In this document: in pieces, positions 1,783 through 58,906 of the stretch | Numbering within the stretch: the first letter of the stretch is position 1 | How the letters are laid out: every line of letters starts with the position of its first letter | The notes under the pieces: generated by a model | What the model was told of the DNA's origin: nothing | Databases searched by the model: none | Seen by the model: only the letters and a program-made list of their open reading frames with translations | Virus record (IMG/VR): IMGVR_UViG_3300014204_000130 | Coordinates: 44,146 to 108,145 of that record | Source: a virus | Lineage: Duplodnaviria; Caudoviricetes | Length of the DNA stretch: 64,000 nucleotides | Reading direction: 5' to 3' (one strand) | Position numbers and translations under genes: made by a program

Positions 1783-2012
1783 AGAGGAAATTTCAATTCT
1801 ACTGTATATAATTGCAATAATGAACTGGTCGAAATATCAGATGAAAGAACTTGGGAAAGTACAACGGATAGACAGTCTTTTGTTGGACAGTTTGTGAAAA
1901 AATTACAATGAATGGTATTGAAGATGGATCACATATAGATATTACAACTTTGGACGTATATATCTGTCCCAAATGTGGAACTATGAAATCAGGGAAGGAG
2001 AAGTAGAAAAAT

Positions 2013-2327
2013 ATGAACTGTTGTCGATGTAATTTCCGAGAAGCAGAAGAACATGCGCCATATTGTCATATCTGCGATAAATTTTACAGTAAGGAAGAAG
2101 TGAATCGTATTCTGAAATACGTGGAGGACAATAAATACACAAATTGTAAAATGGTACAGCAAGGAGACTTACAGGTAAAACTGTCTCTCGCCAAAAGTTA
2201 TAAGGAGTTGGAAGAACATGATCGAGAATTAGAAAGAACTGCCAGTTTAACCTTCCGAAGATTGCCGGGAGATAAACGATTAATTTTCATGATAGTGAAG
2301 AATGATAACCGGGAAACCGTCGAATAA
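2013..2327 (+). CDS. hypothetical Zn-finger protein
   Basis: N-terminal CCRC...CHIC; GGAG RBS. Confidence 0.6.
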   Translation: MNCCRCNFREAEEHAPYCHICDKFYSKEEVNRILKYVEDNKYTNCKMVQQGDLQVKLSLAKSYKELEEHDRELERTASLTFRRLPGDKRLIFMIVKNDNRETVE

Positions 2328-2661
2328 TTTCGTCCAACAAAAGACAGTTTGTGAAAAAATCACAATGTATAAGGAATCTGACATGATAACCCTGAAACCC
2401 CTCCCGTATAAATTGGCAAAAAGAATATTCCTTTCAGACCCCGGAGGAATGTTCCATCAGAGAGGAGTAAGATTGAACTTCGGTATAAAATATGGAATAC
2501 AAGGAACGGACATATCGATCATCAATATTCTAAGAGATGTGAATTACGACCATTACAAATTTGCATTCTATTGGTATCCGGGAAAGGAAATTAATTTCCG
2601 GGATATTATGCTTAGAAATAAATTGGAGACGCTGATAAATGGAGGAGTAGAATTTTCGTAA
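2302..2661 (+). CDS. hypothetical protein (start uncertain)
   Basis: ORF in the co-oriented cluster. Confidence 0.5.
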   Translation: MITGKPSNNFVQQKTVCEKITMYKESDMITLKPLPYKLAKRIFLSDPGGMFHQRGVRLNFGIKYGIQGTDISIINILRDVNYDHYKFAFYWYPGKEINFRDIMLRNKLETLINGGVEFS

Positions 2662-2769
2662 TATTTTTTGACAGTCTTTTAAAAGACGGAATTTCCCAGT
2701 AGGACCGTAAACTGTGAATTTGGAATTCCGTCTTTTGTTGGACAGAATTTTGAAAGTTGAGAATTTAAC

Positions 2770-3375
2770 ATGTCACTTTGTCCAAGATGTAAAGTAAATG
2801 AGAAACAAATATTTAAGACAGGTAAAGTCGGTGCATATTGTAGAGAATGCCAGAAACATTACCATGATAGGTATTATTATGGTGAAGGTGGTAAACCTGT
2901 GAAGATTCCGAAACCCCCGAAACTTCCAAGAATCCCGAAAACAATTTGTCCAAGATGTAAAGTAAATGAGAAACATAAATTTCCAAATTGCATGGCTGCT
3001 TATTGTTTGGTATGCGTCCGAGAAGTGGATAAGGAAACACATAAACGAAGAATGTTGGAAGATCCCGTCGAGATAAAACGAAAACATCACTTGGCCGTTC
3101 AAAGATATCAGAGGAAGACAGATCCTGAAAGATTTCGTCGATATAGAAAGATGGGTATGAAGGAAATAGACACTTCATTGACATTGGCATTCGTAATGGA
3201 TTGGTTTAATGGTGAATGTCAGGAATGCTTTAATATCTGTGAATTCGGAGGAGAGTATAAACCAACAATTGATTATATAGTTCCGTTGAAGTCTGGAGGA
3301 CAACATGTGAAGGAAAACGTAAGGCTGTTGTGTAGAAGTTGTATGCAAATAAAATGGAGAAATTCTATTTCATAA
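2770..3375 (+). CDS. HNH-fold protein with two Zn-ribbon repeats and a degenerate active site
   Basis: CPRCKVNEK occurs twice; C-terminal CQEC...TIDYIVPLKSGGQH..ENVRLLCRSCM matches the HNH/McrA pattern but has His->Tyr and Asn->Met. Confidence 0.75.
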   Translation: MSLCPRCKVNEKQIFKTGKVGAYCRECQKHYHDRYYYGEGGKPVKIPKPPKLPRIPKTICPRCKVNEKHKFPNCMAAYCLVCVREVDKETHKRRMLEDPVEIKRKHHLAVQRYQRKTDPERFRRYRKMGMKEIDTSLTLAFVMDWFNGECQECFNICEFGGEYKPTIDYIVPLKSGGQHVKENVRLLCRSCMQIKWRNSIS

Positions 3376-4156
3376 TATTTTTGGACAGTCTTTTAAAAGA
3401 CACCTACCCCTCTTGTCTGTATGGAAAGAGGGGTTTCTTTTTGTCCAACGTTGGAATTTGAGAGCCGAAGGCTTCCTGTTGAGATGGGGTTGTCTAAGAT
3501 TGGACAGTTATAAATTCGTTGCTTGTCTAAGATTGGACTCCTGTTGAGATGGGTAGAGAATTGGGAGGAAAAAGAATGGGTTACGGATGATATGGAAAAG
3601 TTGGTTATGCATCCATATACCACATGAAGTACTGCCGTACCCTCCGCATTTTCCGGAAATGCTCGCATTATTTTATTCCACCGTACAACCCGCATCAACA
3701 CACGTTCTCCACAGTCGTACATATAGCACCGTACTAGCTGTACCGTACTCTCATACCTTGCAAACGCTGATCAATACTCATTTTCCACGAATCAATGATA
3801 TGCACGCCGAAAGTACAAGTCGATATGGTTGGTGCATTATGCACGGCAATGAAAAGTGGAAAACTCGTAGGAATGGCTTAAAATGGAAAAAGGTAGAATT
3901 GCCTGGGAATGGTCGGAAAAAACTTGTCCAGCAAAAGACTGGGAAAAACTGATACTCCTGAGTATCAAAATTTTAAAATGCGGTTTTGTAACCAGTCCGT
4001 GAAATATTGCAGTCTTTTAAAAGATTTTTCGGAATGGCCATTCCTATTGTATTGGCGATTCAAAAATTCTCTCCTCTTCTCCATGGGGAAGTATAGAGTA
4101 GGGGGAAGGGTAAGATTCTATATTGAAAAAATAGTTATCGAGAATGAAGAAAACAT

Positions 4157-7385: not shown

Positions 7386-7500
7386 TCCTCTCCCATGCAT
7401 CCACGATCTTGTGGAAGGAATGCATTCACGTCGAGTCGTGACATGGGAATTGCAAATTCTGTCTTTTGTTGGACAGAAAATTAAACGTAGGAGAATCTAT

Positions 7501-9070: not shown

Positions 9071-9134
9071 ATTTCTGAAACTCTGTCCAGAAATGGACAA
9101 AAATTAATGCCGAAAGGCAGAAAGGTTACACAAT

Positions 9135-9740
9135 ATGACTACTCCAGTTGCTAAGAAGACCATTGGATCTAAGGTTGCTGCTCCCGCCAAGACCGTTGTT
9201 GCTCCAGTTGCAATGGCATCTGCTACTAAGCAATGCCCTCCGAATCCTCCACTTAACGCAACCCCGGTGAAGCCCGTTCTTCAAGCGGCAACCGTTCTTT
9301 CCTCCGTTCTTGAAAAGAAGCGCGGTGGTGGGTTGACCAAGGAAGCCAAAGCCAAGAAGGAAGCCGAAAAGACGGCCAAGCTCAAGATCATTCGGGGAAA
9401 ACTGGTCGCCTCACTCCTTGCCGATTCCACTCTTCTGGCTGACCCGTCGGAAATGGCAGCCGCAATGATCTCACTAGAGGATAAGGTTGTCCTCCAATAC
9501 GACCTCGAAAACCCTTCCGGTCGTGTCAAATCCGACGGCCATGATGGACGCGGCTATACCCCACAAGAAGTGGCTCAGGTTGCCGTCTTTTCTTGGACGC
9601 AGAAGTATGGTAAGAACATGACAGAGGAACAGGTAATGGATGCTTGGAAATTCGCCATGTGTAACCCGAAGGCTCCTCGTGCAAAGACCAAGAGCGTGAA
9701 GCCTACGACTCCCCCGGCGATTGCTGAAATTCCAGAATAA
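9135..9740 (+). CDS. Lys/Ala/Pro-rich hypothetical protein
   Basis: 201-aa ORF preceded by a palindrome variant and an RBS, followed by a terminator. Confidence 0.7.
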   Translation: MTTPVAKKTIGSKVAAPAKTVVAPVAMASATKQCPPNPPLNATPVKPVLQAATVLSSVLEKKRGGGLTKEAKAKKEAEKTAKLKIIRGKLVASLLADSTLLADPSEMAAAMISLEDKVVLQYDLENPSGRVKSDGHDGRGYTPQEVAQVAVFSWTQKYGKNMTEEQVMDAWKFAMCNPKAPRAKTKSVKPTTPPAIAEIPE

Positions 9741-10191: not shown

Positions 10192-10234
10192 TCTGTCCAA
10201 TATTGGACAGAAATTAAATACAGGAGCATTCATT

Positions 10235-10704: not shown

Positions 10705-10754
10705 ACAACTTCGTCTTTTTAATAGACGAAAATTAAACCATAGGAGATTTCCAA

Positions 10755-11894: not shown

Positions 11895-11992
11895 CCACTC
11901 GCGCCGCCAGACAAAGGGGAACACACATCGGGAACCCGGCGTCCAATATTGGACGCCAAATTAACATCCCTTAAATGGGAAGGAGTATTACC

Positions 11993-16595: not shown

Positions 16596-16690
16596 GACAC
16601 GTTTACAATTCAAAATGGGAACGACAATCGTAACGCGCATTAAAATCTGTCCAATCTTGGACAAAAATTAAAATACAAGGAGAATTACAA

Positions 16691-17056: not shown

Positions 17057-17119
17057 GAACACACGTCGGAACCAAAGGTCCAATATTGGACAAATATTAA
17101 AAATATAAGGAGAATTTAT

Positions 17120-21206: not shown

Positions 21207-21230
21207 TCGTCCAACAAAAGACAAATCTGC

Positions 21231-21820: not shown

Positions 21821-21837
21821 TTGTCCAACAAAAGACA

Positions 21838-22820: not shown

Positions 22821-23700
22821 AACAGATTCTCAGGAAGTTCTTGTATAGATTTCCAAGATTTCGTTCACCTAACAATTCATGTAATCGATCTTTACTACTC
22901 TTTGTTTCATGTTGGATTAAATATTTAATCCGAGTTTGCAATTTTTCGTCCAAGATTGGAATTCTCAAAGACATGAGTTTAATATTTCTATTTAAAATAT
23001 CAATCCCTTCGATCATCGCTATTTCTTTCTTACTTCTGTCGGACTTCCCGGCAATGCCATCCAATATGGCTTGGAGTCCACCGTATTCCTCAATCAATTT
23101 CTTGGCCGATTTAGGACCAATTCCAAAGATTCCGGGAATATTATCGGATGTCTTGGAGTTCTCACCCACCATACATTTGTAATCTAAGAAGTATTTCTTT
23201 TCAATATCCATTACATATTTGAAATTCTCTTCATCGATTGTAATGCCTTTGGTTGGTTCAAACACTACAATATTTGGTCCGATCAATTGCAATAAATCTT
23301 TGTCAGTTGAAACCAGAATTACATGATTATGTGCTTTAAGCATAGATGCAACACATGCAATATAATCATCAGCTTCGTATCCAGCACCTTCCAATGATAT
23401 GAATCCACATGCTTTAATTAATTCAATGAAGAATTTATTATCTACACGATAACGTAATCGTTCCTCTTCGTTATCATCCTCTTCTCTTCTGGCTTTGTAT
23501 TCCGGATATAAAGTACAACGCCTTTCAGATTTACATGTATCGAATGTAAAAACGAATCTTTTGTCAGAATGTTTTTCACGGAATGACAGAAAAGAATTCA
23601 ATATTGATTCAAGATATCCAGCGTTTTTACGATCAATTGCATAATACAAACGACTGAATAAATTCTTTCCGTCGATCACCATTACTTTCTTTTCTGACAT
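22813..23700 (-). CDS. 5'-3' exonuclease / flap endonuclease (PolA N-terminal or T4 RNase H family)
   Basis: VIDGKN, YPEYKARR, YEADD, STDKDLLQL, SDNIPGIFGIGPKSA. Confidence 0.92.
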   Translation of the reverse strand: MSEKKVMVIDGKNLFSRLYYAIDRKNAGYLESILNSFLSFREKHSDKRFVFTFDTCKSERRCTLYPEYKARREEDDNEEERLRYRVDNKFFIELIKACGFISLEGAGYEADDYIACVASMLKAHNHVILVSTDKDLLQLIGPNIVVFEPTKGITIDEENFKYVMDIEKKYFLDYKCMVGENSKTSDNIPGIFGIGPKSAKKLIEEYGGLQAILDGIAGKSDRSKKEIAMIEGIDILNRNIKLMSLRIPILDEKLQTRIKYLIQHETKSSKDRLHELLGERNLGNLYKNFLRICFV

Positions 23701-24551: not shown

Positions 24552-25787
24552 TTAACTCCTATCGATTCTTAATCTTTCAAAAACTGGATGTCGTAACGAT
24601 TTATCTTTCGTTACTTCCATATACGTTATTTCGATCAACTTGTCAATCATTTTATCTTTTTCCATCCAAAATGATTTCCTTTGTTCATCCGTAAATCCCG
24701 AACCAACATTTACTTTTACTCCATAGAAATCAACAGTAAATGCTCCAAGCATTCCTTCATACTTGGTTCCTTTATCTCCTTCAATACAACAAATTACTCT
24801 GACATCTTCACTGTGCTTGTCTTTGAATTTCAACCACATCTTTGAACGTTTGAATTCATATTTTGATTGAGGATGCTTAACCATTATCCCCTCTTTACCT
24901 TGATCAATATATTTACGTGCAAGTTTCAAGAGTAAAGGATAACTAGAAGCCAGCTTTACATATGGAACAAAACTTACATATTCCGACGATTTCAATGTTG
25001 ATAGTTGAAATACTCTTTCAACAAGTAGTCTTTCAGTATCAATTACATCAAAGATTGCATATTTACATTGATTTCGGATGATCGTATTATCCAAGTCGAT
25101 TGTCTTTCGTTGGACAATTTTCATCAACTTCTGGAAATCGGAAGCGTAAATCTCACCGTCAAGAGTGATATTCAAATGTCCAAAATTCCTGATAACATCT
25201 CGTTTAATATTCTCCAAAAGGAATTCCGGGAGGACATGACCATCCCGAGAGGTGAAAGTTGCAACGCCATCCTTAATCTCACACGTCGCACGAATCCCAT
25301 CGATTTTCAGGTTCACATATACCCAAGGGGTATCGGCGAATAAACGTGTGAAGTCTTCTTCAGTCGCTTTTGTCGCAAGCATGATTCCCATCTCCTTGAG
25401 AAGACCGGGAAATGCTTTGTTGATTGTCTTAACAGAAATCCCAATTCCAAGATCCCGATCAAGACCTCTCAAGAAATATTCTTGAACGAGTTTGGTATGC
25501 ATGGTGAGAAAGGTCTGGATCAATTGGATCTTTGCATTCCGGCCATCGGTTATTAAAATCTTATTAAACAGATGAATCGGAAATTTATTATTCAATCCAG
25601 ATCCATTCAATTTGATCTGTTTGGATGTGATATCAAATGTAATATCCTTTGAATATACAAATTGAAAAAGTGCTTTCAAATCATCTTGATTCTCAGTTGC
25701 ATCTGCATGAGAATAGAATTTGAGAAGTCTTACTTTTTCAGTTGATGAATTTGTATGTTTAATCTGTTCAAGTAATTCTGCTATCAT
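24552..25787 (-). CDS. lig: ATP-dependent DNA ligase
   Basis: KIDGIR, LDGEI, FDVI, EGIMVK, WLKFK, VGSGFTDEQR, SLRHPVF..LR. Confidence 0.93.
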   Translation of the reverse strand: MIAELLEQIKHTNSSTEKVRLLKFYSHADATENQDDLKALFQFVYSKDITFDITSKQIKLNGSGLNNKFPIHLFNKILITDGRNAKIQLIQTFLTMHTKLVQEYFLRGLDRDLGIGISVKTINKAFPGLLKEMGIMLATKATEEDFTRLFADTPWVYVNLKIDGIRATCEIKDGVATFTSRDGHVLPEFLLENIKRDVIRNFGHLNITLDGEIYASDFQKLMKIVQRKTIDLDNTIIRNQCKYAIFDVIDTERLLVERVFQLSTLKSSEYVSFVPYVKLASSYPLLLKLARKYIDQGKEGIMVKHPQSKYEFKRSKMWLKFKDKHSEDVRVICCIEGDKGTKYEGMLGAFTVDFYGVKVNVGSGFTDEQRKSFWMEKDKMIDKLIEITYMEVTKDKSLRHPVFERLRIDRS

Positions 25788-26314
25788 AATTTCATCGTTT
25801 CCTTTTCCATATTATCATATTGGTTAAACATGATTTCCAGATCATTCGAATCCAAAAGTAATTTCTCTTTTTGCAAAAATACTCTATCGTATCTATTTAC
25901 AAATTCAAGGAATTCAAGTCTTTGATCAAGAGTATATTTTCGTCGTTCAAATTCAATTTCAACACGGCGATAATCGGATAAGTCCAACAATGGACGACGA
26001 TCTAAGGCTTTCTTGAAATAGCTTTCCAATGTCGCCTTAACTAATTCTTTTATCTTCATGAGATGAAAGATATTTCGAATTGAATATTTTTCAATCAACT
26101 CTGTAAGAATTTCAATTCCAAAGTTGAATATGAAATCTGTGATGAATGTAACTCCCAAATTTGAGGAATTGCACAAGACATAAATATACGACATTTTTGC
26201 ATAGATATCCGTGGGAATGACAAGTTCAACCAATCTGAATTGTTTCTTTTCAAATGCTTTAAGAATTTTATGCTTTCCATAAATCTCCCTAAGCGTTTGC
26301 AATCGCTTCGACAT
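25784..26314 (-). CDS. hypothetical protein
   Basis: 176-aa ORF within the operon. Confidence 0.6.
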   Translation of the reverse strand: MSKRLQTLREIYGKHKILKAFEKKQFRLVELVIPTDIYAKMSYIYVLCNSSNLGVTFITDFIFNFGIEILTELIEKYSIRNIFHLMKIKELVKATLESYFKKALDRRPLLDLSDYRRVEIEFERRKYTLDQRLEFLEFVNRYDRVFLQKEKLLLDSNDLEIMFNQYDNMEKETMKL

Positions 26315-29724: not shown

Positions 29725-30909
29725 CTACAATTTCAATTTTTTCAAACAGGACACACAATACTTGTCGTCTATCAATGGACATTTCGAATCACCAAGACAC
29801 ATATTATGTTGTTCTCGTAAAGTAAATATTTGTTTTTCAATAATTCCAAGACTTCCATTTTGTTGAACTCCAAATACACTAAGTTCTTGTATCTTGGAAT
29901 TCAAGATTTGCAATCTTGATAATTTCTTTGAGAAGAATTCCAAATCAGTTGCATCCGGCACTCGATAACAACTTACCGGAGTATCGATTCTCCTTGGGAG
30001 AATAGAAAGTCTCTTGAGCCTGTCCAATTTTTGGACGAGTGGTAGGAATTTCTCCCGATAATACGTCTCGACTGTCTTGATATTTTTCGAGATTTTCTCA
30101 GCCTTGGGCAACTCCTTAGCAAGAGTATAGCACCCTTTGAGCGTTTCCCGCAACTGTTTTAATCGGATTACTTTATTTTTCAGTTGTGTGAGTTCTTTTT
30201 GCTTTTCTTGAATATTCATTTCAAGAGAGATGATTTCTTCGTAATCCTGCTTCCCATTCTTAATTTTATGATCAATGGAGATATTATCTTTCATCAATGA
30301 TTCAGAAAGTATCTTCTTCTCTTGTAAATCGGTTCCAACTTTTTTCAATAAGACATCTACTTTATCAGAATCGGGAACAAGGCATGACAAGATTTTATTA
30401 CGCGCACCACCGGCATATGTCGGGCCAATGAAGAACATATCCTGATGCTGAGATGCAAAATTCAATTTCTCTTGAATATCGACAAATGAAACTTCTTTGA
30501 ATTTCAAAACATCCGTAATGAATTCTGGAAGTTTTACACCAAACTTTTCCTTCTCGATTCCATCAATGGAATATTTGTCAGATGTAACAGTCTTGTCGAT
30601 GATTGCCAAACATTTCGGACATTGAGGAGTATTTGATTTTACGGGTTCCTTACATGCCGGACATTTCCTCGTCTCCGCAATCGTTTGTTCTCTACGTACA
30701 CAGGCGTTGGAAAGTTGAGCCTCGACCCACCCATCAGTCGTAAAGTTCCGCATGTAAAAAGGGCCACGGTAAATAACGGAATTCAATGCCCGGAGGAAAG
30801 AGGATTTCCCCGCGTCAGACAGTCCAACGATGGACGTAAGACTTGGGGAAAGTTCAATCTCGGAATCCACATGTGATTGGAAGTTGTGAATTTTAATGGA
30901 TTTGATCAT
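29725..30909 (-). CDS. sbcC: SbcC/Rad50 ATPase, N-terminal half
   Basis: MIKSIKIHNFQSH, Walker A GLSDAGKS, Q-loop FASQH, coiled coil, C-terminal CPL...CVSC; internal CPAC/CPKC insert. Confidence 0.85.
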   Translation of the reverse strand: MIKSIKIHNFQSHVDSEIELSPSLTSIVGLSDAGKSSFLRALNSVIYRGPFYMRNFTTDGWVEAQLSNACVRREQTIAETRKCPACKEPVKSNTPQCPKCLAIIDKTVTSDKYSIDGIEKEKFGVKLPEFITDVLKFKEVSFVDIQEKLNFASQHQDMFFIGPTYAGGARNKILSCLVPDSDKVDVLLKKVGTDLQEKKILSESLMKDNISIDHKIKNGKQDYEEIISLEMNIQEKQKELTQLKNKVIRLKQLRETLKGCYTLAKELPKAEKISKNIKTVETYYREKFLPLVQKLDRLKRLSILPRRIDTPVSCYRVPDATDLEFFSKKLSRLQILNSKIQELSVFGVQQNGSLGIIEKQIFTLREQHNMCLGDSKCPLIDDKYCVSCLKKLKL

Positions 30910-38643: not shown

Positions 38644-40299
38644 TCAGTTCGCTTCTGCCAACGCTTTTTCTATGTCTGAATCATCCATAGCATCAGGGTT
38701 TACAGCCGTTGTGTTTACCAACGTTGGGACATCCTCAATACCGATTTCGTAATTTATGTCGGATTCTTTTCGAACTCGATCAGGAAATTTGTCCAACGTT
38801 GGACGGTCCACTACTTCGACGATTGGATTGGTATTTTTTACGGTTTTCGTTTCGATATTCTTATAATCTCCCGCTTCTTTTGCGAATTCAAATTCATCTT
38901 CAATCCAATTCATCTTGTAGAATTCTGGAATAATATATGTTATCAATCGAACTCCAGAACGTACTTTAAACTCACGAGCTGTCAATCGACCTTCAATAGT
39001 ATTTCCATCGGTTCCTTTATGAATATGCAATTTATCTGAATCGCTTTGTTCTATTGCAATCAACAAATCTGCAATCGAAGAAGCTTTATCGGAAGATGCA
39101 CCTGTTTCGTCGGAAATCTTCTTTGCTCCCCGATTTGTCTGTTGAGCACTGAATATTACACACTTATGTTTTCTTGCAATTGATTTCATTTTTGTATACA
39201 AATGAGCTTGAGATTTCCAATCTTGTTCTACAACATTCTTCAATCCAGAAATCATATCTCCGATGTAATCCACAACCACTAGATCAGGTTTGAATGGATT
39301 ATCGGAAATTATTTTATCCACAACTGCCGGAGAACAATTTTCAGGAACCCCATAAATCATGAGATCTGTATCATTGTTTCCATAATCTTTAATCTTATCC
39401 CGCCAACTTTGTAACTTTGCAGGACTCTCAACGATATGAGCCAAAGAGAATTCTTCGGTATGTTTGAACTTTGTAATATGTGAATCCATACGAAATGCAT
39501 ACTCATTGGCAGACATCTCAATTGTGATTATGATGACCTTAATTCCTTTAACTTTACCCTTTTGTTCAGGTTTGTGAAATGCTCTTGAATATACTCCACA
39601 ATAATTACTGAGTGCAACTCCCATCAAAAACATCGACTTGCCCATATTTGTTCTTGCTTGAAACATGGCAAATGAACCGGGTTTCAATGGAGGGTTGAAA
39701 TTGTCAAAGTTCTTGAATCCGGTCCAAACTACTCCAGCTTGTTCCGGATTATTCTTCAGTTCTTGTAAGTATAATATGCGCTGCTCAATGTTTCCTTTTA
39801 ATGAAACCAATTCAATATTAGAATCATAATTTATGGATTTCTTGATAATATCAATTTTCAATTCTAAGTCTTGAACGGATTCCTTAGATGTTTTAACACC
39901 CACTTCCGCAACAGTTTGTGCCATCGCTTTAACAATTTTTCTATTGTGGGAATGCTCTTTTAATTGTTGAGCATATGAGATACAATCAATATCTGCAATC
40001 TTACTTTCTTTAATTTCCAACAAAGATGCTTTAATCTTTACCTTGTCTTCATCTCCTATTTCTGGAAGCCCTATTGCAAAATTATAGAAGCCAGAGAACG
40101 ACACAAGGTTATTAGTTTTTAAATATTCGTCGTTGAGGATATTGTAAATTTGTCTATAATTTGGGAATGCAAAATCTTCAACTTCGACCAGTCCACGAAT
40201 GATTTCAAATGTAGTTACACCATATTTGAAAATAGCAAACAGTAAAGAAGATTCAACATGTTTGTTTTCAGTTTTTCTATTATCTCTTTGTTCGGACAT
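38644..40299 (-). CDS. dnaB: DnaB-family replicative helicase
   Basis: TGF..FD, ARTNMGKS, TIEMS, VVDYI, SAQQTNR, ADLLIAI. Confidence 0.88.
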   Translation of the reverse strand: MSEQRDNRKTENKHVESSLLFAIFKYGVTTFEIIRGLVEVEDFAFPNYRQIYNILNDEYLKTNNLVSFSGFYNFAIGLPEIGDEDKVKIKASLLEIKESKIADIDCISYAQQLKEHSHNRKIVKAMAQTVAEVGVKTSKESVQDLELKIDIIKKSINYDSNIELVSLKGNIEQRILYLQELKNNPEQAGVVWTGFKNFDNFNPPLKPGSFAMFQARTNMGKSMFLMGVALSNYCGVYSRAFHKPEQKGKVKGIKVIIITIEMSANEYAFRMDSHITKFKHTEEFSLAHIVESPAKLQSWRDKIKDYGNNDTDLMIYGVPENCSPAVVDKIISDNPFKPDLVVVDYIGDMISGLKNVVEQDWKSQAHLYTKMKSIARKHKCVIFSAQQTNRGAKKISDETGASSDKASSIADLLIAIEQSDSDKLHIHKGTDGNTIEGRLTAREFKVRSGVRLITYIIPEFYKMNWIEDEFEFAKEAGDYKNIETKTVKNTNPIVEVVDRPTLDKFPDRVRKESDINYEIGIEDVPTLVNTTAVNPDAMDDSDIEKALAEAN

Positions 40300-44418: not shown

Positions 44419-44771
44419 TCTTCCACTTCGATTTCATCTTCGGATTCGTCCAACGTTGGACTGTCATCTTCTTCGATCTCGATCTTTTTCACAACTTCAA
44501 AATCCGACATTTCCCGAGGACGTTTTCCAAAGCGATAGGGAAACAATGGACATGTCGGAACTGTACATTTTTCCACTTCGGAATATTGATATCCCGCGCA
44601 ATCCAAACACTTTGCCCGGATTGCCTTGATGGGAGTTTTCAGATCAATCCCAGATGCTATTAGATTTTCCCGCTGTTCCGCTCCCGCCTTCCGGGTGAGT
44701 TGGGCCTTCCGCTGCATTTCAATGCGCTGTTCTGGTGTAATTGATGCTAAGCCTTTTGGTTTCTGATTCAT
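44415..44771 (-). CDS. Zn-finger protein of the 'KAIRAKCLDC' type
   Basis: TPIKAIRAKCLDC...EV.KC...CPL.PYRFGK.P. Confidence 0.7.
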   Translation of the reverse strand: MNQKPKGLASITPEQRIEMQRKAQLTRKAGAEQRENLIASGIDLKTPIKAIRAKCLDCAGYQYSEVEKCTVPTCPLFPYRFGKRPREMSDFEVVKKIEIEEDDSPTLDESEDEIEVEE

Positions 44772-50683: not shown

Positions 50684-52417
50684 TTAAGAAAATTCTTTCA
50701 TGACCGCTTTTTCAATTTCTGCTTCAATTTTTTGCATTTCTTTGTCATTTAATGTCTCTACGACCGTCTGGATTACTTCTTTCTTCAATAGGAATTGCTC
50801 GTGTATCTTTTCCTCTACGGTATCGTTAACGATGAAGGAATAGACATGAACATCATTCTCTTGGCCTGTTCGATACAATCGACCGATTCGTTGTTCTTCT
50901 GTGGTTGGCTTAAATGGTTTTTCCCACTGCACCATGTATCTACAGAACTGGATATTATGTCCGAAGTTAACCTTATCCGTGCATAATAAGAATCGTCTAT
51001 CAGAGTTCTTGAATTGCTGGATAACTGTAAGAGCATCTTCTTTTTCATCTCCGGTGATCTTGAAACATTTCTGTCCAATATTGGACAAATATTCTTCCAA
51101 CATTCGGATTGTACATTTATAAAATGAAAACACAACAATTTTTTCATCCGTCTGTTCAAGTATCTCTTGGAACTTTTCAAGTTTTGGATTTTCTTTGTAT
51201 TTTCCTCTTGAAGTATCACATAGAAATTGTCGTGCAGCATGATAACCAGCCGATGCATTTCCCTTATGTTCAAGTTTTACATCATCGTAACATTTCAACA
51301 TTTCTTTCGAAGGATCGATAAATATGTCTGTTGGGTATAGATCAACTTTCAACCGTAATTTCTTCCGGATGATCATCGGCTTGATTAACTTGTGCAAATA
51401 ATCATCATTCTTAAATCCTTTGGCTTTCGATTCAGTTTTGACGACATATCGATTCATCATTCTACTCCAGAATCGAAACGATACATCTTCATACTTTATG
51501 AAGTTTGTCTGGAAGAATTTCTGACCTCCAAGTATATGTCCACCATCGATAAGTTTGAATATCGGATACAAATCAAATAATTGATTTTCAACTGGAGTTC
51601 CCGACATTGGTACTCGATATAATGGTTTCCAGAAATTGATTACTAAGTCGAAGAAATTCTGACTTCTGGTTGCAAATAGAAAATTCTTCATATTATGGAA
51701 CTCATCCACAATCAACATATCGGGATTCAACTTTTGTATTTCTTTATAATCGAAATTGCATTTGTCGTAGTTTATGACAATCATCTCGATCATCGGATTT
51801 ACAACGAATTGATGATACTTTTCAATCCGTTTCTTTTTGTTGTCAGTTTTGTTGATATGTAAAATTCCATGTTTTCCAAAAAACTTAATGTAATCTTCCG
51901 TGTAATTCTTTACTAACGCAGCCGGAAGCATCACTAGGGTTTTCTTAATATGTCCAAGTTCCTTCAGACATTTATGAGCGGTATTTACAACTATGGTCTT
52001 CCCGGTCCCGATGTCGTTGGCGATGATCACCCTCTTCCCCAACATGATATATGCCACCGATACGTCTTGTCCCGGCATGAGGGAGAAACCATGTTTCTTC
52101 TGAATCGAATAGATCGTAGAGCGTATTTCTTCTGGGATCTCCTCTCCCATAGTCGGCATATCCTTTATGCGTTCCAGTAATTGCCGTTTGGATGTTTTAT
52201 CTTGGTAGAATTTTTTGAGGGTTGGGGAAATCTGGACAGGATATCCAATTTTCTTCGCCACATTCAACAGGATAGGGAGGGAGACGTAGGGAACTGTATA
52301 ATCCCCACGGATACATTCGTAACAAAGGTTGAATGTCGTATGATCCTGAAGCTTTACAAAGTTCTCACTTGGATCAAGATGTATTGAAATCTTATTTTGG
52401 AAAAGTGAAAGTTTCAT
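50684..52417 (-). CDS. SNF2-family helicase
   Basis: ANDIGTGKT, IVDEFH, MSGTPVEN..DL, PKL, KIVVFS, G.NIQ, QRIGRLYRTGQ, TVEE. Confidence 0.9.
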   Translation of the reverse strand: MKLSLFQNKISIHLDPSENFVKLQDHTTFNLCYECIRGDYTVPYVSLPILLNVAKKIGYPVQISPTLKKFYQDKTSKRQLLERIKDMPTMGEEIPEEIRSTIYSIQKKHGFSLMPGQDVSVAYIMLGKRVIIANDIGTGKTIVVNTAHKCLKELGHIKKTLVMLPAALVKNYTEDYIKFFGKHGILHINKTDNKKKRIEKYHQFVVNPMIEMIVINYDKCNFDYKEIQKLNPDMLIVDEFHNMKNFLFATRSQNFFDLVINFWKPLYRVPMSGTPVENQLFDLYPIFKLIDGGHILGGQKFFQTNFIKYEDVSFRFWSRMMNRYVVKTESKAKGFKNDDYLHKLIKPMIIRKKLRLKVDLYPTDIFIDPSKEMLKCYDDVKLEHKGNASAGYHAARQFLCDTSRGKYKENPKLEKFQEILEQTDEKIVVFSFYKCTIRMLEEYLSNIGQKCFKITGDEKEDALTVIQQFKNSDRRFLLCTDKVNFGHNIQFCRYMVQWEKPFKPTTEEQRIGRLYRTGQENDVHVYSFIVNDTVEEKIHEQFLLKKEVIQTVVETLNDKEMQKIEAEIEKAVMKEFS

Positions 52418-53196: not shown

Positions 53197-53233
53197 GTAT
53201 TATTATTCCTTCAAGATATAATTTTGTTGAGTT

Positions 53234-53262: not shown

Positions 53263-53269
53263 CATTAAT

Positions 53270-53720
53270 AAGGGAGGGGTTCGGCGGTAATGGGGAGGGA
53301 TTCCTTCAGTAGTCTGTAAAGTGTTCGAAGAGAACACTTGTCCTATCTGTTGGTAACTTCATCTCATAAAGAGATGACGATGCCCTACGTTGGTCCTTAG
53401 AAGTCGAGCACGCTAGTGCGAGATTGTCCTATCTGTTGGTTCCCAAGTAAACTAGACTTTGAAAAATATCTAAGTTTGAACTTGGGAAAAAGAGATGTTG
53501 GATCTACTGTGAAAATTTGGTTTGAAAGTTTTTTAAACAGAGTTTCCACTGTAGTTTACAAAAGCACTTCGACTAGCGTCTCAGTTCCGGAAACAGAAGG
53601 ACATCATCTCACAAAAGATTAAGATGCACAAAAACCGCCACATTTCAAAAGTGTTCGAAGAGAACACTTGTTCTTTTAAAGGAGATAAACGTTTTTCTCA
53701 ACAGAAGGACTCTCGCATAA
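53270..53720 (-). ncRNA. candidate structured ncRNA or origin with repeated hairpins
   Basis: 24-nt hairpin repeat twice, 17-nt repeat twice with complementary partners, promoter immediately upstream on the - strand, no credible ORF. Confidence 0.45.
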
Positions 53721-53725
53721 ACGAA

Positions 53726-53754
53726 GTTATAGCATATTTTTTTTCAAAAGTCAA
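53726..53754 (-). promoter_or_regulatory. sigma70-type promoter firing into the non-coding structured region
   Basis: TTGACT-N17-TATAAC with TG extended -10. Confidence 0.6.
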
Positions 53755-54042
53755 GTCAACTGACTGGCATTCCAACCTGTAGCAGTCTGAGTTACAATGA
53801 GGATTTTTGCTATGGAAAAATATATTTTCATAGAACTTTGAAGAGTTTTGAGTATCGTTATTTGTGGAATTTTCACACCTCTGTCACAGGGTCAACATTG
53901 TTGAAAATGATACTTTTTTGGGCTACACGTTCTAAACGAAAGTGTGTACGGCATTTCAGATTTCGACAATTTTGGAAATATAAGTATCATTTCTGGAAAT
54001 CTTTTGATGGACTTTCCTTCCGGGTTGTGGTAATATTTGGAG

Positions 54043-54405
54043 ATGCGCCATGAAAAAATTATAACACAGAATGGTTTAAGTGGAATTTTAAGAACTTTCC
54101 ATCGTCTTTCCAATGAAAAGAGTAAGAATTCAATCTCTGAGATCACAATAGAAGTTACAGATAAAGAAACATTGGAAAAGATAGAAGTCCCGATTTTCGT
54201 AGAAAATCTTGCATTGGCAAACAAATTATCTTTGCAAGATATGATTTCCTGTATTCTGAAATGTTTCATTGTTGATTATACACAAGGACGAGTTGAGTTT
54301 AATAAATCTCTTCTCTCCCATATTAAGGACTATCCGATGTCGGATTTGGAGAAGTTAAAGTTGGTTGCATACCTGACTGAACAAGTCAGTAAAAAATTAC
54401 CATAG
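54043..54405 (+). CDS. hypothetical protein upstream of parB, possibly leaderless
   Basis: TGGACT-N17-TAATAT places the expected transcription start at about the ATG at 54043. Confidence 0.55.
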   Translation: MRHEKIITQNGLSGILRTFHRLSNEKSKNSISEITIEVTDKETLEKIEVPIFVENLALANKLSLQDMISCILKCFIVDYTQGRVEFNKSLLSHIKDYPMSDLEKLKLVAYLTEQVSKKLP

Positions 54406-54415
54406 GAGATTTTAC

Positions 54416-56203
54416 ATGTCTGATATTATTACCAGTGAAGATGACTTCGATTTAATCACACTCGACGAAAGCCCTGTTACCCCGGCGAAGGTTAAGAAAG
54501 AACCGGAACCGATGGATTCCTTGGATGATCTGGATCTGGACGACAATACCCTTTCTCTTCCTCCCGTTGTGGATGAAATGGTAAAGGAAATCCAGGTGAA
54601 GCCGGAATCCAAGAAGATCCAGATTGAAAAATCCATTGCAGTCCCGGTTAAGGCGAAACCCGTGGAATGCGATGATTTTGAAATCAATTTGGATGACGAT
54701 GATTGTCATCAAATGGATGCAAAACATGAACTCGAAAAATCCAAGATTGATTCAGGATTGTTTGAGGGAATTGAAGATACAAAGGAGTTGGTTCGGCCAG
54801 ACAGTTTACCCGAAGAGGAAATCGTCTTGGATGAACAACCCTTGGTGGATTCACCGGAACCGAAAGGTGTTGTCCTCCTCACAACCCCAAAAGTAATTGT
54901 TCCGGAAGAGAAACCGAAGAAGTCCCATAAGAAGAAAGAAGTTCCCGTTGTCGTTGAACAAGGAACGATTGATGTTGTTGAAAAAATGTTGGTTGCTCCT
55001 ACTCCGAAAACAACTGTATCTGAACCAGAAATCAAACTTGATGAAGATGTATCGGATACAATTGAGTTGCAGGATTCGTCCAAGATTGGAATGTCTGTGA
55101 TAGAGCCTATTTCCAAGGACATGTGTGAAAAAGGCTCAAAAGATAAAGAAAAATTTATCCCGGAATCGGTCGATTTGTCCAACGTTGGACAAGATAAAGA
55201 AAAATTTATCCCGGAATCTGAAATGTTATTCGACCCCATGTTCGATATTTCCAAGATCAATATCGACCGGAAATACCAGACTCGTGTGATCCAACGGAGT
55301 CCAGAACAAATCAAGGCATTCGGGGAAATCATCACATCTCAGGGTCAGTTGGAACCCGTTCACCTCCATAAAGAGGGAGATGAATATTTCCTGATTGTTG
55401 GATTCGGTCGGTATGATGCCATGACAGCTCTTGGTGTGAAAACCATTAAGGTTATCATCCATGAGAATCTGTCGGATTCGGAACTTGTTAAGCTTTCCAC
55501 GGGAACGAATGAACATCGATTACAACTTGGGGAGTGGGATAAAATTGCATCTGTCGGCCTGTTCGCAAAGAATCATCCTACAATTGATAAGGATGGACCA
55601 GATACACCCAATTGCCTGACAGGTATCTTTGGATATTCAAGGGCAACAGTTTACAGTTACGTTGAGATGTATGACTACTTCCATGATAAAGATTTGATCG
55701 TGGAGTATTTCAAACGAACCGACGTTAAGCAGTTTATTTTCAAGGCAATTCTCGGGGTAAAGAAACATATCACCGACTTGGAAACGTTCGTGAAATTTCT
55801 GGAAGAGAATAAAGATGTCGGCAAGCGTGAGTTTGAAATTGCATTGCAGACATACATTTCAAACAAGCATCTTGATGAACGCCTGTTGAAGCAGGAAATC
55901 AACAAGAACGTCGATGTCGGTATTCAACTCGATCCGGAATCGGAACCTCCCACAGCATTCGAAAAAGACGTTGATAAAATGGTGAAGGATGCAGAAACCA
56001 AAAATCCTATCAATGTCGAAATGGTGAAGAAGGTTTCCGAATTCATGACGGATTTGATGAAGAATATCGGAACGGTTGAAGAGACTATGAAGAATCTCTT
56101 GGCCGTCGAAGATGTTAAGAATCTCATGGATAACGCACGAATCGCTTCATTTCAGAAGAAATTTGGAAATCTCCAGAAGATCTATTTGAAATTCTGGGCT
56201 TAA
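54416..56203 (+). CDS. parB: ParB-family protein: long acidic disordered N-terminus, ParB/Srx domain, HTH, C-terminal helices
   Basis: YQTR...I..QGQLEPV....Y.LIVGFGRYDA...G...I..I...N..R.QL..WD; HTH LTGIFGYSRATVYSY. Confidence 0.8.
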   Translation: MSDIITSEDDFDLITLDESPVTPAKVKKEPEPMDSLDDLDLDDNTLSLPPVVDEMVKEIQVKPESKKIQIEKSIAVPVKAKPVECDDFEINLDDDDCHQMDAKHELEKSKIDSGLFEGIEDTKELVRPDSLPEEEIVLDEQPLVDSPEPKGVVLLTTPKVIVPEEKPKKSHKKKEVPVVVEQGTIDVVEKMLVAPTPKTTVSEPEIKLDEDVSDTIELQDSSKIGMSVIEPISKDMCEKGSKDKEKFIPESVDLSNVGQDKEKFIPESEMLFDPMFDISKINIDRKYQTRVIQRSPEQIKAFGEIITSQGQLEPVHLHKEGDEYFLIVGFGRYDAMTALGVKTIKVIIHENLSDSELVKLSTGTNEHRLQLGEWDKIASVGLFAKNHPTIDKDGPDTPNCLTGIFGYSRATVYSYVEMYDYFHDKDLIVEYFKRTDVKQFIFKAILGVKKHITDLETFVKFLEENKDVGKREFEIALQTYISNKHLDERLLKQEINKNVDVGIQLDPESEPPTAFEKDVDKMVKDAETKNPINVEMVKKVSEFMTDLMKNIGTVEETMKNLLAVEDVKNLMDNARIASFQKKFGNLQKIYLKFWA

Positions 56204-56206
56204 TAT

Positions 56207-56246
56207 AATTTGGACTCCGGGATGTAAAAGTTCCGGAGTCCAAATT
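56207..56246 (+). terminator. strong hairpin after parB (terminator or processing site)
   Basis: 14-bp stem aatttggactccgg/ccggagtccaaatt. Confidence 0.5.
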
Positions 56247-56263
56247 GAAAGGAGTTAGAAGAT

Positions 56264-56617
56264 ATGCCAGACATTGTATGGATTGGATTGTGTATTTTTG
56301 GATTGTATATGGTATTGGAACCTACGAGAACCGATGATTCGAAGAATAAGTGTTACTTCAAAGCACCTCCACCTCCATTACCACAATCGAATTTGAATAT
56401 ATCAATGCCAAAGTGTAAACCACCCAGATTCGATAATTCCGATTTAATAATTTTATTATCTCAGACCCATGAAATTGTAAAACATAGAAAAGTAAGACAA
56501 GAAATAATTATATGTAAAAATTGTTCGGCTCCAAAACAAAAATATTCCAAATGTGAATATTGTGGAAGTGGCGAATATCTTCCTGAAATGCCAAAATGTC
56601 AATCTGATTGGGAGTAA
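56264..56617 (+). CDS. membrane-anchored Zn-ribbon protein
   Basis: N-terminal hydrophobic segment, poly-Pro, CKNCSAP...CEYCGS. Confidence 0.6.
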   Translation: MPDIVWIGLCIFGLYMVLEPTRTDDSKNKCYFKAPPPPLPQSNLNISMPKCKPPRFDNSDLIILLSQTHEIVKHRKVRQEIIICKNCSAPKQKYSKCEYCGSGEYLPEMPKCQSDWE

Positions 56618-56831
56618 AATATGCCAGCACCAATTTTATCTATGCCTTCTTCAAATCCATCCAAACGAGAATTGTATCTTGAATACAAAACCAAAATTTA
56701 CAGATTTAATCTGATGGCAAATATAATTATTATATCGTTTATGATTGGGATTGGATTCATATTTGTTTTATTGCAATGAAAGTATTTGGTTTATAAACAT
56801 GTTCAATAATATAACTGAAAGGAATCGAAAT

Positions 56832-57905
56832 ATGGAACTTCTTAATTTTTTACGCAATGGTGGAAAACCGGAAGAGTTAACTGCGAAATATGCAATCAAA
56901 GTAACATCACATAAAAAATTTCCTAATTTACTACTGTTTAAATACAATCAGATTGACTCCCCGATGGGTGAGCGTATTGTTCAAGAATGCCGTGGGATTA
57001 TTCTGGATTCTACAGACAATTGGAAAGTTGTTTCATTTGCATATGAAAAATTCTTTAATCACGGCGAAGGACATGCTGCTCCCATCGACATGTCTACGGC
57101 CAAAGTAATGGAAAAATTAGATGGTTCAATAATGACGGTTTTCTACTATGCAAATGATTGGCATGTTGCTTCTTCTGGTATGCCTGATGCTGCTGGACAA
57201 GTAAATACATTACTTGGAGATACCTCATTTGCTCAATTGTTTTGGGCAACATGGAAAGACCTGAAATATTCAATGCCAGTAGATAAGACTCGATGTTATG
57301 CATTTGAGATGATGACCCCATATAATAAAATTATATGTATCTATAAAAAATCGAACATTGTTCTGCATGGCGTTCGTGATCTTAATACTTTACAGGAACT
57401 TGAGCCAGAGCCTATTGCTGTTAAACATGGATGGGAATGTGTTAAATCATATAAAATGAATTCATTGACTGCTGTTGCTGAAATGGCTGCAAGTTTGAAT
57501 CCAATCGACTACGAAGGATATGTCGTAGTTGATCAAAACTTTAACAGAGTTAAGGTTAAAAATTTATCTTATGTTTCTCTTAGTCATATAAAAGAGGGAA
57601 TGTCATTAAGAAGAATGATTGAAATTGTACGCACTAATGAATCTGAAGAATTTTTAACATACTTTCCTGAATTTGAGAAACTATATCGCGAAGTTCGTAA
57701 AGCATTTAATGAATTAGTGCAAGAGATTGAAGCAACTTACGAACAACATAAAAACATTGTCGTGCAAAAAGATTTCGCTCTTGCAATCAATAAGAAACCA
57801 TATACAGGTGTTTTGTTTGCGTTGCGTAAGGGTGATGTTACATCTGCGAAACAAGCTCTCCGGGGAATGAACATAGACAGACTTGGCGAATTGCTTGGTT
57901 TATAA
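56832..57905 (+). CDS. T4 RnlA (Rnl1)-family RNA ligase
   Basis: LFKY, ECRGIILD, KFFN.GE, EKLDGS, AFEM, EGYVV, RVKVK...Y. Confidence 0.88.
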   Translation: MELLNFLRNGGKPEELTAKYAIKVTSHKKFPNLLLFKYNQIDSPMGERIVQECRGIILDSTDNWKVVSFAYEKFFNHGEGHAAPIDMSTAKVMEKLDGSIMTVFYYANDWHVASSGMPDAAGQVNTLLGDTSFAQLFWATWKDLKYSMPVDKTRCYAFEMMTPYNKIICIYKKSNIVLHGVRDLNTLQELEPEPIAVKHGWECVKSYKMNSLTAVAEMAASLNPIDYEGYVVVDQNFNRVKVKNLSYVSLSHIKEGMSLRRMIEIVRTNESEEFLTYFPEFEKLYREVRKAFNELVQEIEATYEQHKNIVVQKDFALAINKKPYTGVLFALRKGDVTSAKQALRGMNIDRLGELLGL

Positions 57906-57907
57906 AC

Positions 57908-58906
57908 ATGTTCAATAACATAATTGAGAGCATTCTTGTTCGATTCAATATGGAATACAAACTAATTTCCAATGGATATAAATTTTTATTAAAATGTCCA
58001 TTTCATAAAGAATCCAATCCATCTTTAACCATAAGATCGGATACTGGATTGTATGGGTGTTTCTCTTGCAATACAAATGGTCCAAACATTGCACACTTTT
58101 TGAAACGATTACTTGGAAAAGATGTAGATATCCGAGAATTCGTTTCTGAAAAGGATGAACTTCAAATGCAATTGAATAAGATATATTCCAAGTCGGCAGA
58201 TAAACTTTTGCAATTTGATACATATTCCGAATTCTTGGAAGTGTATAAATATGAATCTCAAAATTTTGTTCCGGCAATGAACAATCCATGTTCAAGTAAT
58301 TATCTGATAAATGAACGCAAATTACATAAGAGTATAATTGAAAATTTTAACTTGAAATATGCAACATGTGGACAATATGAAAAACGAATTATTATTCCAT
58401 ATATGAATGGAAAAAAGACAATCGGTTTCAATTCCAGATTGATTGGAACTGATAAATCACAAGGTAAAGAACTAAGATATAGATATTTTCTATCTCCGAA
58501 AGAATTTGAAGGATACTTATATAATCTTGATCATGTTTCGAATAGAAAATATTGCATTCTGGTTGAAGGTCCATTTGATCTGATGTATCTTGTTCAATGC
58601 GGATTTAAGAATGTAATATCAACTTTGAATACTCGTGTAAGTAATGAACATCTTTTGAAAATATCTGAGTTTGAAAAGATTATCTTTTGTTTCGACAATG
58701 ATGAAAAAGAAACTGGAAAGAACTCCATGTTGAAAGCCGCGAAACATATTTTGAATATTCTTCCAGAGAAAGAGATTTATTACATAGATCTCCCATTTGG
58801 CAAAGATCCCAATGAATGTTCTCCTGGAGAATTGAAACTTGCATTTTCGAAAATGAATCGTCTAATATTGGACAAAAAAGAAGACCGCCATTTTCAGGCG
58901 GTCTGA
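57908..58906 (+). CDS. dnaG: DNA primase (CHC2 Zn finger plus TOPRIM)
   Basis: CPFHKE.NPS, CFSC, RIIIP, GFNSR, LVEGPFD, CFDNDE.G, KDPNE. Confidence 0.9.
   Translation: MFNNIIESILVRFNMEYKLISNGYKFLLKCPFHKESNPSLTIRSDTGLYGCFSCNTNGPNIAHFLKRLLGKDVDIREFVSEKDELQMQLNKIYSKSADKLLQFDTYSEFLEVYKYESQNFVPAMNNPCSSNYLINERKLHKSIIENFNLKYATCGQYEKRIIIPYMNGKKTIGFNSRLIGTDKSQGKELRYRYFLSPKEFEGYLYNLDHVSNRKYCILVEGPFDLMYLVQCGFKNVISTLNTRVSNEHLLKISEFEKIIFCFDNDEKETGKNSMLKAAKHILNILPEKEIYYIDLPFGKDPNECSPGELKLAFSKMNRLILDKKEDRHFQAV
58874..58904 (-). terminator. terminator at the convergence point
   Basis: Stem agaccgcc/ggcggtct with an A tract on the left, adjacent to the palindrome at 58860. Confidence 0.55.

Follow-up and report, generated by a model that had tools for sequence, protein, structure and literature searches.

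We report that a short palindrome, GTCYWWNNWWRGAC, is repeated along the whole chromosome of a tailed phage (Duplodnaviria; Caudoviricetes) represented by the virus record IMGVR_UViG_3300014204_000130. The window that we analysed is a stretch of 64,000 nucleotides corresponding to bases 44146-108145 of this single 108,145-bp record, and coordinates below are those of the window unless genome positions are named. The window contains 24 exact matches to the palindrome against 0.34 expected, with a maximum of 2 across 100 dinucleotide shuffles. The array is real and under selection, and its members probably serve as places on the DNA where some DNA-binding protein encoded by the phage itself, here called the reader, would dock. 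Two candidate readers are weighed here, an orphan ParB-like protein and an early protein with tandem helix-turn-helix (HTH) segments.

A preliminary description of the window, made from its letters alone, had listed 22 copies and estimated that chance would yield fewer than one per 64 kb. The computed expectation bears this estimate out, all 22 coordinates are exact matches, and two further exact matches lie at 9585 and 29767. The array extends beyond the window, as the full record contains 34 strict copies and none of a reversed control pattern. Scanning the record with a symmetrised, iterated weight matrix gave 46 non-overlapping sites at a threshold reached at most 0.5 times per shuffled genome, resulting in a density of about one palindrome per 2.3 kb across the whole chromosome.

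The number of copies within genes was compared with that obtained after shuffling synonymous codons within each gene. Genes of at least 100 amino acids contain 19 strict copies, compared to a mean of 0.90 and a maximum of 4 in 200 such shuffles. This result shows that the in-gene copies are maintained by selection on the nucleic acid. The preliminary description had argued the same from the presence of copies in unrelated genes, in different frames and on different strands, and had named a codon-preserving shuffle as the check. Its examples are correct: sites are found within the genes for DNA ligase (25102..25115), an SbcC-like ATPase (30822..30835), the DnaB helicase (38791..38804), a SNF2 helicase (51073..51086), the ParB-like protein and, in its final 47 nt, primase (58860..58873, with a terminator after it), and both frames and strands differ. 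Further in-gene sites lie at 9585..9598 (gene 9135-9740), 25982..25995 (gene 25784-26314), 29767..29780 (in the overlap of genes 29450-29782 and 29725-30909) and 44448..44461 (gene 44415-44771), and a one-mismatch site at 22948..22961 lies within a 5'-3' exonuclease gene.

The invariant part of the site is an outer GTC and GAC, 8 bp apart, so that the centres of the triplets are about one helical turn from each other; the interior is A/T-rich. Among 84 half-sites the most frequent are GTCCAA (39), GTCTTT(T) (19) and GTCTAA (8), with GTCCAT, GTCCAG and others making up the remainder. In our lettering of the half-site types, the combinations observed are a-a', b-a', b-b' and d-a'. The b-a' form GTCTTTTGTTGGAC recurs letter for letter 11 times. 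The outer flanks are A/T-rich and in part symmetric (TAAT..AATTA), and the best sites grow to 20-bp palindromes, for example TCTGTCCAATATTGGACAGA, whose core is the site at 10195..10208. The subtypes are regional: sites with a b half-site lie mainly in the plus-strand block at genome 37-66 kb, and perfect palindromes centred on CG lie mostly within replication genes. The parS-like form TGT...ACGT...ACA proposed in the preliminary description holds for the best copies but not for the others, in which the centre varies (TA, CG, TC, CA and others); only about half of all half-sites have a T before the GTC. We found no match for any motif 14-mer in the published literature, and a search combining HMO-2011 with the palindrome likewise yielded nothing.

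Many sites are in genes, as the preliminary description stressed, but it did not stress the intergenic share: about 20 of the 46 sites (about 43 %) are intergenic though only about 8 % of the DNA is non-coding, once spurious small open reading frames are corrected by hand. The usual position is 2-14 nt past a stop codon and 20-36 nt 5' of the next start. The densest cluster comprises 8 sites in 1.7 kb (1875-3538). It opens with an intergenic GTCTTTTGTTGGAC at 1875..1888, 19 nt 5' of a small open reading frame, followed by GTCCAACAAAAGAC at 2332..2345, 4 nt past the stop of 2013-2327, which has the downstream flank of site 1875 with the core inverted. An intergenic b-b' site, GTCTTTTAAAAGAC, lies at 2674..2687; the next site, at 2730..2743, is 26 nt 5' of an HNH gene (2770-3375), and a second b-b' site (3388..3401) stands 12 nt past the stop codon of that gene with a terminator hairpin directly after it. 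A one-mismatch site, GTCCAACGTTGGAA (3443..3456), and a pair of identical sites, GTCTAAGATTGGAC (3492..3505 and 3525..3538), complete the cluster, and a near-match, GTCCAGCAAAAGAC, is found at 3926..3939.

Downstream of this cluster the sites occupy a series of gene junctions. Past the intergenic site at 7461..7474 come AGAAAATTAAA, a ribosome site and an ATG, and an intergenic near-match, GTCCAGAAATGGAC (9085..9098), lies 36 nt 5' of an ATG. Site 10195 lies 3 nt past a stop codon. A 15-bp variant with N9 spacing, GTCTTTTTAATAGAC (10713..10727), precedes gene 10755, and intergenic sites at 11941..11954 (20 nt upstream), 16649..16662 and 17078..17091 precede genes 11975, 16691 and 17120 respectively. 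At the far end of the window a one-mismatch site (62961..62974) falls between genes 62318-62953 and 62969-63550. After the sites at 7461, 9085, 10195, 11941, 16649 and 17078 comes an A(G/A)AAATTAAA element and then AGGAG. The same element is conserved before the AGGAG of many plus-strand genes between 7475 and 17120, and at 15973 it is present without a palindrome. Either it forms part of a longer dyad, as the outer arm, or it may serve in the initiation of translation. A second shared element, GAACACAC(A/G)TCGG(G)AACC, is found directly 5' of the palindrome at 11915-11940 and 17052-17077.

Such positions raise the question of whether the palindrome acts as DNA or as RNA. An RNA hairpin at cistron junctions, with a 5-bp stem and a 4-nt loop that flanks can lengthen, could serve in processing, stabilisation or translational control, and many sites do lie 10-16 nt 5' of a Shine-Dalgarno sequence or 3-10 nt 5' of a terminator hairpin (3388, 21209, 21823, 58860 and genome 23421). 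Copies in a cyanophage-like genome described below also often cap terminator-like hairpins. The asymmetric sites nevertheless show no strand bias, with 13 pointing one way relative to transcription and 8 the other, so that recognition most likely takes place on DNA. The occurrence of both orientations, together with the inverted cores at 1875 and 2332 within an identical downstream flank, points to a reader that recognises the DNA duplex symmetrically and away from an RNA hairpin. In 8 of the 21 asymmetric sites the sense strand would carry a C-A mismatch, leaving a 3-bp stem, and stems of the GTCTAATATTAGAC type are very weak. There is no Rfam match, only one site has a terminator-like score, on the antisense strand, and structure alone leaves the identical sequences in unrelated phages and the 26 in-gene copies unexplained. 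We consider an RNA role very improbable.

Five strong sigma-70 promoters (TTGACA-N17-TATAAT type) were seen in the plus-strand block, and no site lies in any of them. A promoter role for the palindrome was rejected, as on manual inspection the spacings of sigma-70, sigma-54 and extracytoplasmic function (ECF) promoters all failed to fit. A virion RNA polymerase using hairpin promoters was also considered and dropped, as each of the large proteins either resembles a tape-measure or tail protein or has no match.

The explanation that we favour for these observations is that a dimeric, sequence-specific phage protein would dock on the double-stranded palindromes across the whole chromosome. The sites would be kept where they are cheapest, in short intergenic gaps, and would otherwise be written into genes. 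The first candidate for this reader is the 595-amino-acid ParB-like protein encoded on the plus strand at 54416..56203. Its residues 1-270 are acidic and predicted to be disordered, followed by a ParB_N domain, an HTH (GYSRATV) and a helical C-terminus. ParB-like PHROG families match the N-domain down to E = 1e-12, and a profile of five homologues matches solved ParB chains across the GERRxRA (GxxR) segment. The ENL of box III (ENLQR) is retained. The AlphaFold model has a mean predicted local distance difference test score (pLDDT) of 48, being poor outside residues 370-490 and confident within them; the HTH is modelled at pLDDT 78-93, with helices 401-405 and 409-422 at about 90. The top Foldseek matches, in which the N-domain and the HTH are aligned across about 200 columns, are a Noc-NBS DNA complex (best, 7ol9), Spo0J, ParB-CTPgS, ParB-parS and KorB, at probabilities of 0.97-1.0. 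Their E values are about 2e-3, so that the assignment of the ParB fold depends on the probabilities and the sequence matches. Taken together, these comparisons point to a protein of the ParB/Noc/KorB type whose DNA-binding domain is plausibly sequence-specific, in agreement with the preliminary description.

This is the only gene with a ParB_N domain in the record, and the presence of two of the sites inside the gene itself counts in favour of its product as the reader. The preliminary description had seen no ParA in the window, and the absence holds further: the whole 108-kb record, which is 88 % complete, contains no AAA_31 match, and the controls were positive in 14 of 14 genomes. The lack of ParA together with a lytic gene set makes partition unlikely. 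If the ParB-like protein is the reader, each 14-16-bp palindrome would nucleate or load ParB dimers, which would then cover or clamp the adjacent DNA. The protein might organise the phage DNA across the genome, silence it or act as a roadblock on it, or protect it, by analogy with KorB-OB or Noc-NBS. A 2025 survey reports that orphan ParB-fold proteins are common in phages, often as methyltransferase fusions, and leaves site arrays unmentioned (PMC12704722). Phage ParBs of another class, described in 2026, are activators of thymine dioxygenases and have no DNA-binding domain (PMC13229309); as the present protein has such a domain we did not assign it to this 5mYOX-associated class, although no dioxygenase search was made.

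The ParB-like protein is our choice of reader, but a tentative one, possible rather than probable. The enrichment, the selection on nucleic acid, the ParB_N and HTH domains and the lack of ParA all stand as the preliminary description had them, but nothing ties the protein specifically to the motif, and a series of observations weighs against the link. The ParB_N match scores 23.7 bits by hmmscan, below the curated cut-off of 26.3, and 26.8 bits in a six-frame search. The GERRxRA segment reads GFGRYDA, a degraded form in which GERR has become GFGR. The sites are densest at a distance of 51 kb from parB, next to the gene of the other candidate. The spacing of the sites is not significantly even (coefficient of variation 0.85 compared to 0.97 at random, P = 0.19); a 'collapsed' version of this test was biased by construction and was discarded.

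The syntenic relatives add to this series. Using the ParB-homologue profile we retrieved nine metagenome loci in which SNF2 (40-45 % identity), primase (40-45 %) and ParB (29-40 %) are found in the same arrangement. These nine ParB-bearing loci contain no copy of the dispersed motif in about 73 kb. Nor do they contain any other dispersed palindrome above shuffled expectation, a comparison of low power given that the matching 14 kb of the present phage contains only two perfect copies; a dispersed TCAA-N7-TTGA in one relative (L120) did not exceed the shuffled maximum. What four of the relatives (L120, L121, L125 and L126) do have is a lineage-specific array, made up of 4-10 short repeats and situated 1.5-2.5 kb upstream of parB. 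In three of them the array lies between the SNF2 operon and parB: L126 (840-1265) has five 23-bp palindromes ATACTACCGATGATCGGTAGTAT and five tandem 22-bp repeats, L125 (7677-7763) four tandem 22-bp units with CCAACC/GGTTGG arms, and L120 (5322-5612) four to five copies of a hairpin unit of about 30 bp.

The present phage has a comparable feature in the non-coding stretch 53200-53890 upstream of parB, where a 21-bp palindrome, AAGTGTTC-N5-GAACACTT, occurs at 53319 and 53649 (53319..53669) beside two copies of TTGTCCTATCTGTTGGT (53338 and 53424). This palindrome could be the protein's own site, or an origin. That the arrays of the relatives and the 53319/53649 palindromes stand where a cognate parS or origin is expected is the main reason for not rating the ParB-like protein higher as the reader of the dispersed motif.

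The second candidate reader is an orphan early protein of 352 amino acids encoded on the plus strand at 314..1372. Xre-like HTH segments occupy about residues 18-55 and 115-160, and the protein also has a coiled coil and a zinc ribbon of the CxxC kind. As a coiled-coil dimer it would present four Xre-type HTH, and its sites would be stoperator-like palindromic roadblocks within operons that time or shut down expression. Its gene is the second of an early operon behind a consensus-type promoter (TTGACA-N18-TAGTAT), and the densest cluster begins 500 bp downstream of it. Two different HTH units would suit the two kinds of half-site and the palindromic flanks (TAAT..AATTA). The protein and the motif are also both lineage-specific, as we found no homologue among 5.8 billion proteins and no motif in the relatives. 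The HTH assignments are weak, with a PHROG match at E = 1.8e-6 and nothing above the Pfam cut-off, and the Atlas scores of 0.76-0.82 are to be read against a chance first match of at least 0.8 occurring about one third of the time. The five strong sigma-70 promoters seen are free of sites, and for a regulator of initiation the 26 sites within genes would be superfluous. This protein had been named as the alternative binder in the preliminary description; with its two Xre-like HTH and the adjoining cluster we find it about as likely as the ParB-like protein, which still leaves it somewhat doubtful.

To see how widely the palindrome occurs, we scanned IMG/VR for exact matches to TGTCCAAYRTTGGACA and obtained at least 118 loci. 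Among the matches listed, 60 of 118 loci have two or more copies of GTCCAA-N2-TTGGAC, compared to 1 of 103 for a composition-matched control palindrome. Also among those listed, 44 multi-copy loci are podophages of the HMO-2011 type, with about 74 % nucleotide identity to the Roseobacter phages CRP-345 and CRP-1. These podophages have 4-8 copies within about 3 kb of the early region, mostly arranged as GAACC-core-ACTTTAAACGGAG-ATG. In such loci (L234-L236, corresponding to G001, L119, corresponding to CRP-1, L057 and about 40 others) some copies lie in low-complexity coding stretches that encode PSNVGQ.

The genomes fall into two patterns. G001, an HMO-2011-type genome of 55 kb with 7 copies, G002 (54.7 kb, 12 copies) and CRP-1 have no ParB_N domain, and their motif clusters are confined to the early region. 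G003 (44 kb) has 9 strict copies, or 11 by a looser pattern, spread over the genome, and encodes a ParB_N-HTH-methyltransferase fusion. The cyanophage-like G004 (67.6 kb; L243-L246) has 34 copies of GTCTAATATTAGAC, also genome-wide, as well as direct terminal repeats and 157 HIP1 sites (GCGATCGC). Its palindromes are spaced more evenly than random (coefficient of variation 0.60, P = 0.001), several cap longer terminator-like hairpins, and the densest cluster lies just upstream of a gene for a 690-amino-acid Dam methyltransferase with a weak ParB_N match. Genome-wide arrays thus accompany a ParB-domain protein in 3 of 3 cases, with the match in G004 being weak, and early clusters lack one in 3 of 3; the numbers are small and uncorrected. 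We tentatively link the genome-wide spread of the palindrome to ParB-domain proteins.

The same genomes extend the case against the present ParB-like protein. Palindrome arrays occur in four unrelated phage lineages, two of them without any ParB domain, and complete phages with the palindrome and no ParB_N show that the motif can occur without a ParB. In G003 and G004 the ParB-like proteins are methyltransferase fusions that resemble the present one in the N-domain only and differ in their HTH helices. The preliminary description held that a motif retained in relatives lacking parB would point elsewhere. We found such retention in non-relatives only, so that the ParB claim is weakened and not refuted.

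Sharing of the palindrome by unrelated phages and hosts could also be explained by another factor, either an unrecognised phage protein or a widely conserved host protein. The five lineages that bear GTCYAA-N2-TTRGAC arrays have almost no proteins in common, and the sites are always concentrated at gene junctions; together with the excess of multi-copy loci over the control this favours such a factor. No DNA-binding family is common to all five, HTH_3 and Sigma70_r4 included, and the sigma-r4-like matches in motif-bearing phages look like small terminase subunits. The hosts, however, differ widely, from marine Alphaproteobacteria (CRP-1/HMO-2011) to a HIP1-rich cyanobacterium (G004), with the present phage coming from landfill or groundwater. 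We know of no universal bacterial DNA-binding protein with this site. Since the relatives of the present phage lack the motif, a determinant on the phage side fits better than a host factor, and we think it quite unlikely that a factor of this third kind is the reader.

It is conceivable that GTCYAA-N2-TTRGAC is a cross-lineage mark of phage chromosomes on which lineages have converged or which they have exchanged, and that in large lytic phages it forms a genome-wide lattice loading an orphan ParB-type clamp to organise, silence or shield the DNA. As a whole we hold this proposal to be unlikely. If it were true, it would be a use of ParB outside partition that is not described for phages in the literature searched.

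Some sites appear to have arisen by local duplication. The parB gene contains two copies of the motif, a one-mismatch site at 55078..55091 and a perfect one at 55177..55190. The latter lies in 55140-55218, where 28-bp direct repeats AAGATAAAGAAAAATTTATCCCGGAATC (55140 and 55191) flank 23 bp that include the palindrome, forming a 51-bp, 17-codon in-frame unit. The extra segment is absent from 4 of 4 ParB homologues, and the site appears to owe its origin to this duplication or insertion, which looks recent. The identical sites 3492 and 3525 are enclosed by a 15-bp direct repeat TCCTGTTGAGATGGG (3474 and 3539; stretch 3474-3553). In a third region a unit of about 50 nt, made of GTCCAACAAAAGAC and a CCCCACC...GGTGGGG terminator, is duplicated on either side of gene 21332-21820 (21200-21290 and 21815-21900), placing one site at 21209..21222, 2 nt past a stop codon, and the other at 21823..21836, 2 nt past the stop of the bracketed gene.

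These duplications could suggest that the palindromes are selfish or recombinogenic elements, such as landing pads or by-products of nuclease mobility or slippage hot spots, that spread by duplication. The regional clustering of subtypes would fit, as would the bracketing by sites of both the HNH gene 2770-3375 and gene 21332-21820. Flanking repeats beyond chance are nevertheless found at only 2 of the 46 sites (55177 and the 3492/3525 pair, counted once), and for this reason the idea of target-site duplication was dropped. Gene 21332-21820 has no match to any Pfam family, nuclease families included, at E <= 0.01, and its homologue in L062 does not adjoin the motif copies there and was rejected as motif-linked. 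The comparable repeats of Cluster O mycobacteriophages are not involved in rearrangements (PMC4351075), and spread alone leaves maintenance against synonymous drift unexplained. Selfish spread therefore seems to us a very unlikely account of the array, and docking sites for a phage-encoded reader remain the preferred explanation.

The phage itself has 37 % G + C and the gene set of a large lytic tailed phage. Replication and repair genes encode a family B polymerase, DnaB, a DnaG-type primase, the SNF2 helicase, an ATP-dependent ligase, the SbcC-like ATPase and the 5'-3' exonuclease; a T4 Rnl1-type RNA ligase, a CCA-adding enzyme, a MoxR/VWA pair and the HNH endonuclease are also present. No integrase was found among the proteins scanned, which took in part of the genes. 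INPHARED contains no close relative by DNA or by ParB protein, only a distant PolB at about 25 % identity, and IMG/VR contains none, with genome contigs giving one weak, irrelevant match. DNA of the phage is present in landfill, groundwater and aquatic metagenomes. Related strains about 92-98 % identical cover window 44000-63999 in aquatic runs and show segment replacements, for example the skipping of 49384-50630. In strain reads from four metagenome runs none of the 40 listed differences falls within a site, with 488 more differences standing outside the list. The sole tRNA call in the window (ARAGORN) is a tRNA-like gene with a four-base anticodon (gtaa) at 36393-36488 on the minus strand.

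Three results are new here. In-gene copies are held against synonymous drift, and one palindrome is found in at least five unrelated phage lineages. The third, a tentative one, is the tendency of genome-wide arrays to accompany ParB-domain proteins and of ParB-less phages to keep early-region clusters only. Identifying the reader would reveal how and why a virus marks its whole chromosome, whether for compaction, silencing, self-recognition or roadblocking, and would also test such a role for the orphan phage ParBs surveyed in PMC12704722. Should the reader be an ordinary early repressor, the finding would be a large operator regulon.

Among known systems, stoperators belong to temperate phages. 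Those of the Cluster A mycobacteriophages resemble the present array in that short sites, bound by a repressor, occur by the tens within operons and frequently in small gaps between genes (PMC6550527). They are asymmetric and oriented with transcription (PMC4351075), unlike the palindromic, unoriented sites described here in a phage in which the protein scan found no integrase. The podophages of the HMO-2011 type (CRP-1, CRP-345 and G001) share the core itself, GTCCAA-YR-TTGGAC, placed 5' of early-gene ribosome sites and inside a few genes. They differ in having their few copies packed into the early region with oriented flanks (GAAACC...ACTTT), in lacking ParB_N and in sharing no proteins with the present phage.

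Noc with its NBS sites in Bacillus subtilis is also an orphan ParB paralogue that works without ParA on many dispersed palindromes, and it provides the best structural match to the present protein. Noc has an N-terminal membrane-targeting helix where the present protein has its acidic disordered residues, and it serves the host chromosome and not a virus. The best-understood silencing system of the ParB family is KorB with the dispersed OB sites of the IncP plasmid RK2 (PMC11790492). There a CTP-dependent clamp acts on about a dozen dispersed palindromes per replicon in silencing beyond partition, and KorB is among our structural matches. RK2 differs in using KorA and IncC (a ParA) and promoter-related sites; in the present phage no partner is seen, recognisable promoters are avoided and the GERR segment is degraded.

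The closest counterpart is found in the Cluster O mycobacteriophages, in which 34 copies of a 17-bp repeat, TGTTCGG-N3-CCGAACA, are spread over about 70 kb (PMC4351075). Of these, 14 are intergenic, 10 are near gene 5' ends and 10 are internal, located off promoters and without orientation; the phages have no integrase or parAB and encode one protein with a ParB-like domain (PMC4351075). The authors predicted a dimeric binder whose function would lie outside transcription initiation; they did not settle on a function and passed over the ParB-like protein (PMC4351075). In Corndog we confirmed 10 repeat copies in 14 kb and a ParB_N domain in gp90, which resembles the present ParB-like protein in the N-domain only. 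The half-sites of Corndog are invariant whereas the present phage mixes three types; the spacing is 7-3-7 there and 6-2-6 here, and sequence, host and phage lineage differ. In both cases a non-temperate tailed phage has more than 30 dyad repeats genome-wide, about 40 % of them intergenic, promoter-free and unoriented, together with one ParB-like protein and no ParA. The present array is another member of the class to which the Cluster O repeats belong. Such repeats of a lytic phage were published in 2015 and have stayed without an explanation, and the phage described here provides an independent, larger case.

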